Assembly (NCBI RefSeq): GCF_000091665.1
Contig: NC_000909.1
Location: forward strand, 1,116,629-1,148,628
Reading direction: 5' to 3'
DNA length: 32,000 nucleotides
DNA from: Methanocaldococcus jannaschii DSM 2661
GTDB lineage: Archaea; AGJL01; Methanococci; Methanococcales; Methanocaldococcaceae
In this document: one piece after another, positions 1,850 to 31,715 of the stretch
Numbering within the stretch: position 1 is the first letter of the stretch
Layout: every line of letters begins with the position of its first letter
The notes under the pieces: generated by a model
What the model was told of the DNA's origin: nothing
Seen by the model: the letters and a program-made list of their open reading frames with translations, nothing else
Databases searched by the model: none
Position numbers and translations under genes: made by a program

Positions 1850-1891
1850 ATGAAAAAAGTAAGAGTAGTAACTGCCGGAACATTCGACATC
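1850..1891 (+). pseudogene. Displaced 5' fragment of a ribL homologue (14 codons, [14 protein letters not shown]), then interrupted
   Basis: The first 14 codons match the start of the intact ribL at 2208 ([13 protein letters not shown]). After codon 14 the frame enters a GC-rich hairpin and stops at TGA 1916-1918. It has its own SD-like GAGGA upstream. Confidence 0.7.
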
Positions 1892-2041
1892 CATAGGGGG
1901 AAACCCCTATTGGGATGAACCTTTTAGTAAAAGCTTCACCAAAACCTAACATCTCCTCGCTTACGCTCGGAGGTGTAAATTAGTAAGATTTGGGGAGTAT
2001 CCCAATAGAGGGGCGAAGCCCCTCTATGGTGTGGATACCCC
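1888..2041. repeat. GC-rich structured insert bounded by two related hairpins (MITE-like element or small structured RNA)
   Basis: Hairpin 1 (1888-1917): CATCC-ATAGGGG-GAAA-CCCCTAT-(TG)-GGATG. Hairpin 2 (1993-2041): GGG(A)GTATCC..AATAGAGGGGC-GAA-GCCCCTCTAT..GGATACCCC. Both share the core ATAG(A)GGGG/CCCC(TC)TAT. An imperfect third hairpin, CCTCG..CGGAGG, lies at about 1955-1973. The island is strongly GC-enriched relative to its flanks. Confidence 0.5.
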
Positions 2042-2054
2042 ATGTCCATTAGCT

Positions 2055-2795: not shown

Positions 2796-2897
2796 TAGTC
2801 AATCATCAAAATAAAAATTGTTCAACAAAGGGTATTTAAAACCCCTTTGGGGTTTTATTTGTTCCAATTTAATTAGTGAAGTTTTGATGATTGACTA
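2796..2897. repeat. 102-nt palindromic element: 16-nt perfect inverted-repeat arms plus central GC hairpin, ending just before the RBS of the next gene
   Basis: TAGTCAATCATCAAAA (2796-2811) is the exact reverse complement of TTTTGATGATTGACTA (2882-2897). The central hairpin is AAAACCCC-TTT-GGGGTTTT (2838-2856), extended by AACAAA/TTTGTT. It is preceded by the tandem repeat CTTATGTTCATA x2 (2772-2795). Confidence 0.65.
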
Positions 2898-30155: not shown

Positions 30156-30266
30156 CTAATATTAATGAAGGTTTAAAATTTATAAAAAAGTTAGTAGTAG
30201 TGTTTCATAATTTATATAATAATAACTATATACTATTGATTGATGGTTAAATAGCGTTCTAATAAT

Positions 30267-30620
30267 TTACTGCTTCAAAACATTTACCTTTTCAATTAAT
30301 ACCTTTAACTCTTCAGCATCTCCTTCGTTGATGATAGCAACTGATGATGCAGCAACTTCCAATCCAGCAGCCTTACCTAAATCCTGCTTTGAAGCTACGT
30401 AAGCGTAAGGAATTCCTTTCTCTTCACATAAGTATGGGAGGTGAGCAACAACTTCTTCTGGTTTAACATCTTCAGCAATGATAACTAATTTTGCGATACC
30501 TCTTTCAACTGCCTTTGTAACTTCGTTAGCTCCTTTTTTGATTTTTTGTGCTTTTGCAACTGCATCTAATAGCTCTTTTTGAATTTCTTCTGGAACTTTA
30601 AATTTTACATAAACTGCCAT
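30267..30620 (-). CDS. rpl7ae: 50S ribosomal protein L7Ae (K-turn-binding protein of the ribosome, C/D and H/ACA RNPs, RNase P)
   Basis: [52 protein letters not shown]... gives 117 aa from ATG 30620 (SD GGAGG 9 nt upstream). The ORF track uses an upstream TTG at 30629. Confidence 0.93.
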
Positions 30621-30648
30621 GTCTTTCAACCTCCTTCATCTCTTTGCT

Positions 30649-30792
30649 AAAAAATGGGCAATCCGGAGGGAATTGCCCACTCCTACAGGGCTTTTGCACT
30701 TGTTGATATTTATAAGGAATTTTGCATCTATAAGGTGCATATTTTTATATAAGAAATATTTTCCTGCAAAAGCCCTGTAGTTATCATCGTGG
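30649..30792 (-). promoter_or_regulatory. Structured rpl7ae 5' leader: K-turn-like motif closing a 16-bp perfect helix, then a GC hairpin with CCCUCC loop followed by U6
   Basis: Minus-strand RNA: CCAC-GAUGAUAA-[CUACAGGGCUUUUGCA ..66 nt.. UGCAAAAGCCCUGUAG]-GA-GUGG (plus 30677-30792). This is followed by GGGCAAU-UCCCUCCGG-AUUGCCC (30656-30678) and UUUUUU (30649-30654). The RBS GGAGG and the ATG lie about 20-30 nt further on. Confidence 0.55.
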
Positions 30793-30826
30793 CTTAGAAT
30801 AGGTATAACAACATATTGACTTTTAG

Positions 30827-30835
30827 TATATAAAA
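30827..30835 (-). promoter_or_regulatory. TATA box (TTTTATATA) with AAAAG BRE-like element for the rpl7ae-rps28e-rpl24e transcription unit
   Basis: The minus strand reads AAAAG-TTTTATATA just after the hisG stop. The predicted TSS near 30802 lies about 10 nt before the CCAC-GAUGAUAA motif. Confidence 0.5.
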
Positions 30836-30848
30836 CTTTTGGGTAAGT

Positions 30849-31715
30849 TTATAAAATCCTCTCAATAGGCACCACCAATATATCTCTCGCTCCTAAAGCA
30901 TGAAGCTTAGGAACTAAGGTAAATATCTCATCCTCATTAACAACGGCATGAATAGCTACCATATTATCGTCAGATAAAACCTTAGAAACTGTTGGACCAG
31001 CCATTCCTGGAATTAATTTTCTAATCTCTTCGACTTTATCCTTTGGGGCATTCATCATAATTAATCTTTTTGTTTCAGCAAATAAAACACTTTTTATGGC
31101 AATAACTATTTGATTTATTTTTTCTCTTTTCTCTTTATCTTTTAAGCTGTTTTTGTTTGCTATTAATCTTGTAGTTGATGAGACAATTTCATCTATAACT
31201 TTTAACCTATTCAACCTTAAAGTTGTTCCTGTAGATGTTAAATCACTAATTAAATCAGCTATTCCTATGAATGGAGCTATCTCTGTTGCTCCACTAAGTT
31301 CAATAATCTCAACTTTCTTATTTAATTTTTCAAAGTATTTTTTTGTTAGGTTTGGGAATTCTGTTGCTACTCTCATCCCTTCTTTTATATCGTCTATGCT
31401 GTTTATATTTGAGCTCTCTGGAGCGGCTAAAACCAGTTTTGCAAATCCAAAACCAAAATCTAATAGGAAATCAACTTTATCTTCAACATTTCTCTCTAAA
31501 ACTAAATCATAGCCAGTTACTCCTATATCTGCAACACCATCAGCCACAAACTCCGGAATATCTCTTGCTCTTGCAAACATTACTTTGATGTTGTCATCTA
31601 CAGTGTTAGCAAATAAACTTCTTCCCTTAACTGTAATCTTTAATCCTGCCTTCTCTAAAACTTTCATTACTGGCTCTGAAATCCTCCCTTTATTTGGTAA
31701 TGCAAACATTATCAT
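30849..31715 (-). CDS. hisG: ATP phosphoribosyltransferase (long form with C-terminal regulatory domain)
   Basis: 288 aa. Contains [41 protein letters not shown] and [30 protein letters not shown], which are HisG signatures. Confidence 0.9.

Follow-up and report, generated by a model that had tools for sequence, protein, structure and literature searches.

A leader with two kink-turn motifs, one of them interrupted by a palindromic insertion, in front of the rpl7ae operon of Methanocaldococcus jannaschii

Feedback control of L7Ae through a kink-turn (K-turn) in the leader of its own mRNA is already established, and a headline to that effect adds little. The leader considered here is that of rpl7ae (MJ1203), the first gene of the rpl7ae-rps28e-rpl24e operon of Methanocaldococcus jannaschii DSM 2661, which lies on the minus strand of the window, by which we mean the whole 32,000-nt stretch that was analysed (NC_000909.1, positions 1,116,629 to 1,148,628). 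Minus-strand positions 30820-30540 of the window match the MJ1203 row (Text S1), one of the rows of the 121-species alignment of Daume et al. 2017, exactly over 281 nt (PMC5539422). With the published L7Ae K-turns of 5′ untranslated regions (UTRs) the leader shares the gene that it precedes, a GAU bulge, tandem G.A/A.G pairs, a Shine-Dalgarno (SD) sequence placed within a K-turn helix, and a weak, protein-dependent canonical helix (C-helix) (PMC5539422, PMC6298567). It differs from them in having two K-turn motifs, one of which is interrupted by an insertion. We consider it probable, at roughly 0.6, that the operon is preceded by a two-K-turn leader in which an SD-embedded K-turn, here called KtB, acts as the feedback element and an upstream K-turn, KtA, is likely a second L7Ae site.

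The SD of rpl7ae, GAAGGAGG (30637-30; all leader coordinates refer to the minus strand), is itself part of the bulged strand of KtB, GA-GAU-GA-AGGAGG (30630-30642; -1b A30641, L1-L3 30640-38, G1b 30637, A2b 30636, 3b-8b 30635-30). The non-bulged strand, CCUCC-G-GA-UUG (30659-30669; 8n-4n 30669-65, 3n G30664, G2n 30663, A1n 30662, -1n U30661), is drawn from the loop and 3′ arm of a short hairpin, hairpin 2. In the non-canonical (NC) helix GGAGG (30634-30, 4b-8b) pairs with CCUCC (30669-65), next to the non-Watson-Crick pairs A30635.G30664 (3b.3n), A30636.G30663 and G30637.A30662 and the GAU bulge (30640-38). For comparison we assembled 25 distinct Methanococcales l7ae leaders from genome contigs, contigs encoding close L7Ae homologues and the published alignment; those lacking a species or strain name are given by their L numbers. 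The motifs UCCG-GA-U and RAU-GA-AGGAGG were each found in 22 of the 25, with AGU in M. voltae. Leaders L210-L213, from uncultured Methanococcales whose L7Ae is 73% identical, retain the upstream K-loop but have UGGAU in place of CCGGA and, along with this, lack the GA that precedes the SD.

The SD is placed in a helix of KtB and not of KtA, which comes no closer to it than 42 nt upstream. The block header of Text S1 in Daume et al. 2017, 'TSS Kt-n Kt-b SD start', puts the non-bulged strand before the bulged one (PMC5539422), which is the order of the KtB strands. The same study tested a 50-nt M. maripaludis fragment starting GUGGGC, which was among the best repressed in an Escherichia coli green fluorescent protein (GFP) reporter with L7Ae from S. 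acidocaldarius (PMC5539422). This fragment does not contain the KtA bulged strand, and it contains CCGGAU and GUGAUGAAGGAGG. Huang et al. 2019 reported a GAU bulge in all six UTRs examined, with M. maripaludis alone having 3b = C or 3n = G (PMC6298567). Header order, fragment content, repression and the G at 3n thus all point to KtB as the element already published, and its key residues are identical to those of the L7Ae-repressed M. maripaludis element (PMC5539422). By analogy with the L7Ae-dependent repression described for that organism, the M. jannaschii leader is of the known L7Ae autoregulatory type, acting through KtB.

The upstream motif KtA is a separate element, located in a stretch that the published work treated as lying upstream of the transcription start site (TSS). 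Its bulged strand (30781-30792) comprises CCAC (30792-89, C-helix), GAU (30788-86), G1b and A2b (30785-84) and UAA (30783-81), and its non-bulged strand (30677-30682) G2n and A1n (30682-81) followed by GUGG (30680-77, C-helix). The pattern CCAY-NAU-GA...GA-GUGG was found in 20 of the 25 leaders, spread over Methanocaldococcus, Methanotorris, Methanothermococcus and Methanococcus, with diverging flanks. Within these 20 the 4-bp C-helix is never broken, being CCAC/GUGG or, in the other genera, CCAU/GUGG with a U.G pair; GAGUGGG is invariant, and L3 is always U. The bulge is GAU (AAU in L006) and is followed by GA, with a second GA immediately 5′ of GUGG on the opposite strand, an arrangement assigned to a K-turn by sequence compatibility. 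The -1b:-1n pair of KtA is C:G, which favours folding and occurs in none of the six published UTR K-turns (PMC6298567).

What lies between the two KtA strands varies. Methanotorris, Methanothermococcus and Methanococcus, as well as FS406-22 and L205, have an interior of 3 nt, giving an 18-nt K-loop, CCAUGAUGAUAUGAGUGG (sequence CCACGAUGAUACGAGUGG; pattern CCAY-GAU-GA-UAY-GA-GUGG). M. fervens, M. vulcanius, L001, L002 and L005 have a hairpin of 9-11 bp in this place, and the window, L003 and L201-L204 a 16-bp helix with an AU-rich core of 64-67 nt. With archaeal K-loops and box C/D K-turns KtA shares a 4-bp canonical stem, a 3-nt bulge ending in U and tandem G.A pairs, and the KtA of the other genera additionally shares the box-C-like AUGAUGA and the 3-nt closing loop of K-loops. 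Archaeal L7Ae binds K-loops. KtA is taken as most likely a second L7Ae site, and since no description of the upstream K-loop was found in the literature searched, it is apparently a second K-turn that had not been described before.

Unlike the elements of box C/D small RNAs (sRNAs), KtA lies in an mRNA leader and lacks a D box CUGA, a C′/D′ pair and guide regions, and in the window its loop is replaced by the 16-bp helix and 66-nt core. A box C/D sRNA was rejected as a candidate, the window having CGAUGAU and AGGA, no C′/D′ and no Rfam C/D match at gathering score (U3 reached 19 bits against 34). An A. fulgidus-like pairing of the KtA bulged strand with the SD-proximal GAUGAAGG was likewise rejected, as its C-helix would consist of C:A, A:G, C:G and C:A, compared to four perfect pairs with GUGG. 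A single RNA of Methanococcales or Thermococcales with two L7Ae-type K-turns also features in the excerpted account of the euryarchaeal RNase P RNA double kink-turn module (PMC5499556); according to that excerpt they are in tandem in one stem of a catalytic RNA, whereas here the leader has two separate elements of hairpin type with 7-10 nt between them.

A sequence-only reading of this locus had listed the elements of the leader, all of which are present on the minus strand. Its K-turn-like CCAC-GAU-GA/GA-GUGG motif has been borne out as the conserved K-turn/K-loop of 20 of the 25 leaders, and the clamp whose persistence in relatives it had asked about is kept in those 20 as CCAC/GUGG or the U.G variant CCAU/GUGG. 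The 2-nt overlap that it noted between GUGG and the following hairpin (30677-30678) is correct, and its suggestion of an L7Ae autoregulatory leader agrees with the identity of MJ1203 and with the published KtB-type element. The switch that it drew retains its KtA clamp and its anti-SD CCUCC, the complementarity of the hairpin loop to the SD being that of the SD partner; it had missed the GAU-GA 5′ of AGGAGG and the G-GA 3′ of CCUCC, which together make up KtB.

That both KtA strands belong to one RNA is indicated by the helix between them. The perfect 16-bp inverted repeat pairs 30780-30765 with 30698-30683, with 66 nt between the arms and 98 nt overall; two perfect 16-bp inverted repeats with a gap of 3-160 nt were seen, against 0.01 expected per window. 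Its basal 9 bp, formed by the 5′ arm CUACAGGGC (30772-30780) and the 3′ arm GCCCUGUAG (30683-30691), could be followed through the relatives (alignment A1): both partners have changed in four of the nine pairs, pairing holds in 99.3% of cells, the covariation score was reached by none of 500 shuffles, and in slid controls pairing drops to 30-55%. The intermediates, U.G in M. fervens, G.U in L201 and the U.G of CCAU/GUGG, pair on the l7ae sense strand only. These compensatory changes and sense-only intermediates together argue for a selected sense RNA that spans both KtA strands. The 7-bp extension of the helix is uninformative since it is invariant in its four bearers. The sequence-only reading, which had proposed covariation of the 16-bp helix as a check, is upheld for the basal 9 bp; the extension, with the 66-nt loop, is a strain-specific insertion.

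A start site upstream of KtA is predicted from a TATA box, P1 (UUUUAUAUA, 30835-30827), which matches TWTATATA and has a CCAAAAG resembling a transcription factor B recognition element (BRE) upstream. In M. jannaschii, starts follow TWTATATA by 23 ± 2 nt (PMC2699501), which for P1 gives 30802-30806 and a predicted TSS at about A30804, 12 nt before CCAC. The P1 box is kept in all Methanocaldococcus relatives with hisG upstream, and all genera have a conserved BRE/TATA that precedes KtA by a fixed short distance. Whichever candidate TSS is taken, KtB falls between it and the ATG, and KtA is in the UTR only if transcription starts from P1 (~30804).

A number of observations weigh against the two-K-turn leader. 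The C-helix of KtB is minimal, with 2 bp (A30641-U30661 and G30642.U30660), and the invariance of SD and anti-SD gives KtB no covariation test. In the window, KtA has three unpaired nucleotides (UAA) between A2b and the 16-bp helix and none on the other strand, and by its sequence it is best regarded as a non-canonical K-loop derivative that fits the standard form neither of a K-turn nor of a K-loop. KtA is absent in M. infernus, M. villosus, M. indicus, M. aeolicus and L004, and is thus dispensable. A generic K-turn descriptor (4-bp stem, 3 nt, GA, 3-120 nt, GA, complement) matched the window 154 times compared to 153 ± 12 in shuffles, so the case for KtA comes wholly from its conservation in relatives. 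Further points concern the start site. MJ1203 is not mentioned in Zhang 2009 (text and supplement) or Li 2008, and no measured 5′ end was found there. Daume et al. 2017 placed the Methanococcales TSS near GAGUGGGC (PMC5539422), and in M. maripaludis C5 (MmarC5_0963) they marked the A of AUGAGUGGGC as 'TSS verified by RNA-Seq' (Text S1, PMC5539422), a position that falls within the 3-nt loop of the upstream K-loop and would leave the KtA bulged strand outside the mRNA. Finally, the insert in the window contains two TATA-like boxes, CUUAUAUA (30753-46) and CUUAUAAA (30716-09), which by the TWTATATA rule could start transcripts at about 30722 or 30685.

The best-surviving alternative, which we nevertheless regard as unlikely, builds on these last points: only KtB would be in the mRNA, transcription would start near GAGUGGGC, driven in M. 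jannaschii by the insert box CUUAUAAA, and CCAC-GAU-GA would be promoter DNA or part of another short transcript. The RNA-seq end in M. maripaludis C5 at the A of AUGAGUGGGC, the internal TATA-like box 23 ± 2 nt upstream of ~30685 and the sufficiency of a KtB-only fragment for repression in the E. coli reporter (PMC5539422) all fit it. Against it, no TATA is found between P1 and GAGUGG in the insert-free L001, L002, L005, L205, M. fervens and M. vulcanius. M. maripaludis has no TATA box 23 nt upstream of the RNA-seq 5′ end; a conserved ATTATATA lies instead 23 nt upstream of GCCGCUC. Since there is no TATA at the right distance, the C5 end may be a processing site and not a start site. The compensatory and G.U changes require sense RNA across both KtA strands, and these strands are conserved jointly in four genera. 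The M. maripaludis Term-seq and operon papers give no leader 5′ or 3′ end for MMP0641.

Between the K-turn motifs and sharing bases with both lies hairpin 2 (30655-30679), consisting of (U)GGGCAAU (GGGCAAU at 30678-72), the loop UCCCUCCGG (30671-63) and AUUGCCC(A) (AUUGCCC at 30662-56), followed by a U6 run (30649-54) in the linker between the KtB strands. A less probable alternative than the previous one is that hairpin 2 and U6 form a terminator or attenuator, with P1 transcripts ending at 30649-54 as a ~150-nt K-turn sRNA or attenuated leader and L7Ae at KtA altering read-through. A GC-rich hairpin followed by AUUUUUU in the window strain, U-runs of at least 5 nt in the equivalent linker of most leaders and the termination of archaeal RNA polymerase at U-tracts (PMC8716108) are compatible with this. 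Against it, M. fervens, L006, L007 and M. villosus lack the U-run despite intact hairpin 2 and KtB (their longest linker U-run is 2-3 nt, for L006 by inspection), and the run is thus not a conserved terminator; in Methanococcus a U7 pairs with A7 as a capping helix between the KtB strands. Hairpin 2 is sequence-conserved in Methanocaldococcus only, its stem is without compensatory change, and it is absent in four other genera. A scan for bacterial-type terminators passed over it on the minus strand, the only hit being the central hairpin of the insert on the plus strand, and the leader has no Rfam family match. Published data on M. maripaludis also rank the rpl7ae mRNA first in abundance within the operon. 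The terminator-like anti-SD hairpin of the sequence-only reading was therefore not sustained, its U-run not being conserved, its stem lacking covariation and the hairpin being confined to one genus. The separate sRNA of ~150 nt that the same reading offered as an alternative is a candidate to which no Rfam family corresponds.

A protein-independent anti-SD H-type pseudoknot (stem 1 GGGCAAU/AUUGCCC, stem 2 CCUCC/GGAGG), serving for example temperature tuning and leaving the GAs incidental, has a feasible topology (loop 1 of 1-2 nt, loop 3 of 21 nt) and a complementarity that reaches 8 bp in L006 and L007, but is very improbable given that G-GA after CC and RAU-GA before AGGAGG are kept in 22 of the 25 leaders, including genera with three complementary bases and no hairpin 2, that the orthologous M. 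maripaludis fragment responds to L7Ae, and that the 5-bp helix is not predicted at 85 °C.

Returning to the two-K-turn leader, the whole leader has a folding energy z of -4.28, and in the folding model at 85 °C two elements alone persist, the 16-bp helix (-5.4 kcal/mol) and hairpin 2 (-1.7 kcal/mol). CCAC/GUGG and SD:CCUCC do not form in this model without protein, and such unaided instability fits the protein-induced folding described by Huang et al. (PMC6298567). Following the published mechanism, free L7Ae would bind and stabilise the otherwise unstable KtB, locking the SD in the NC helix and turning off its own translation. Hairpin 2 pairs residues that KtB needs, which suggests that it is the ON-state structure: A30662, U30661 and U30660 would be paired, the C-strand of KtB sequestered and the SD free. 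KtA in turn competes for hairpin 2 bases, as its C-helix takes G30678 and G30677, the two that they share; L7Ae at KtA would thus help to open hairpin 2 and favour KtB. This coupling is the weakest step of the scheme, which also supposes L7Ae binding to KtA and the P1 start.

Alternative pairing of the same kind is found outside Methanocaldococcus. In Methanotorris, Methanothermococcus and Methanococcus the predicted 5′ end has a conserved GCCACUC, which precedes CCAUGAUGA by about 17 nt (seen in L008, L193, L208 and L214 and in the published rows Metig, Mvol and Mevan). With GAGUGG(G)C it forms a 5′-terminal 7-bp helix that is 93.7% paired, the outer pair being GC, AU or UA. As both use GAGUGG, this helix excludes the K-loop, and together with the hairpin 2 overlap it means that the non-bulged strand of KtA faces alternative pairing in both lineages. 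In the metagenome-assembled genome L004, which is without both K-turns, CCAAUGACUGAAAAA stands in their place. A metagenome scan for GAGTGGG-N20-50-ATGAAGGAGG gave L193 as the only real leader among the matches listed, the others being chance matches.

The comparison of leaders further indicates how KtA came to be split. As it is the state of every other genus, the 3-nt loop is ancestral by parsimony. KtA would hence have been an 18-nt K-loop into whose loop a palindromic module of about 98 nt was inserted in the M. jannaschii lineage; the module stem would now merely hold the KtA strands together, with the 66-nt AU-rich core as cargo. The inserted module (30692-30771) consists of the 7-bp extension UUUUGCA (30771-65)/UGCAAAA (30698-92) and the AU-rich core (30764-30699) with a small central hairpin (30739-30723). 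The full module is present only in the window, L003 and L201-L204, and FS406-22, L205 and all other genera have the 3-nt loop. The 66-nt loop and 7-bp extension, absent or truncated in close relatives, are on this comparison a strain-specific insertion. We infer that L001 (loop AAAA, keeping AAAAGCCC), L002 (loop UUUU, keeping GGGCUUUUGC) and L005 (keeping AUUGUAAAAGCCC) are different internal-deletion derivatives of the full module. A 34-codon open reading frame (ORF; 30740-30636), without an SD, starts in the 66-nt insert and ends at the UGA of GAUGAAGG; it is missing from relatives without the insert.

Similar modules, combining a terminal repeat of 10-18 bp with AU-rich flanks and a GC hairpin in the centre, occur elsewhere in the leaders: upstream of KtA in FS406-22, L201 and L204, between the U-run and the SD in L204, and, in M. 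formicicus, between GUGGGC and CCGGAU. The window has another two in intergenic regions (2049-2148 and 2796-2897, plus strand). They appear to belong to a family of intergenic palindromic modules of about 100 nt, with a 13-18-bp terminal repeat, AU-rich flanks and a hairpin such as GAAGCC-caaaa-GGCUUC, further examples being L002:174-287 and the leaders of L204 and L208. The window contains two modules of the TAGYCAATYAYCAAA type, and FS406-22, L201 and L204 have this type in their l7ae leaders; other modules have the same architecture and a different repeat sequence, and the metagenomic leader L204 carries three. The leader module shares with MITEs, the miniature transposable elements that have inverted repeats, a size of about 100 bp, perfect 16-bp terminal inverted repeats, an AT-rich interior, the lack of an ORF and presence/absence polymorphism, with full, truncated and empty states in relatives. 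It differs from them in that the terminal repeats vary between modules and in that no transposase is linked. No second copy of the 16-bp repeat was found in the 32-kb window or in PLSDB plasmids, the modules gave no BLAST match in PLSDB plasmids and no Rfam match, and no clear target-site duplication flanks 30683-30780.

In the surrounding region hisG (31715-30849, minus strand; PF01634) precedes the leader, and the rpl7ae coding sequence (30267-30620, minus strand; ATG 30620-18) matches PF01248 with E = 5e-32. A C-5 cytosine DNA methylase gene (PF00145; 28479-29579, minus strand) directly follows the operon, an order also seen in several Methanocaldococcus relatives (L202, L204 and L207). Scans for tRNA and tmRNA gave no match. 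At the gathering threshold the only Rfam match in the whole window was flpD RNA (RF01737; 14824-14869, plus strand, 59.1 bits), with none in the leader, and at E ≤ 10 the region 30200-31000 gave only sub-threshold noise (sroB, miRNA precursors and U3 at 19 bits). Elsewhere in the window, a GC-rich intergenic stretch at 1890-2045 (plus strand), downstream of the ORF 835-1839, has four stable hairpins (minimum free energy -63.7 kcal/mol, z = -4.94) and no Rfam match, and may be an undescribed structured RNA.

As to the wider group, it is tentatively suggested, and rather doubtful, that Methanococcales l7ae leaders are two-site L7Ae sensors with cooperative, switch-like feedback, and that polymorphic palindromic mobile modules, perhaps carrying promoters, are tolerated where they land in the loop of the K-loop. 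The 5′-proximal, well-folding, high-affinity K-loop would capture L7Ae first, remodel the adjacent helix (hairpin 2 in Methanocaldococcus, GCCACUC/GAGUGGC in the other genera) and license the weak KtB. The leaders also form a natural series from a bare K-loop through a K-loop with a 9-bp hairpin to a 16-bp helix with 66 nt of cargo, that is, a natural experiment on how much K-turn strand separation is tolerated under selection, of relevance to engineered L7Ae/K-turn switches. If confirmed, the two-K-turn leader would add to the published element, throughout the order, a second K-loop that folds better and lies upstream of it, in a region formerly read as promoter, and would explain why a minimal 50-nt fragment works although the native leader is longer. 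The switch model for the Methanococcales would then be one of two protein sites and competing helices, and not of one induced stem-loop.

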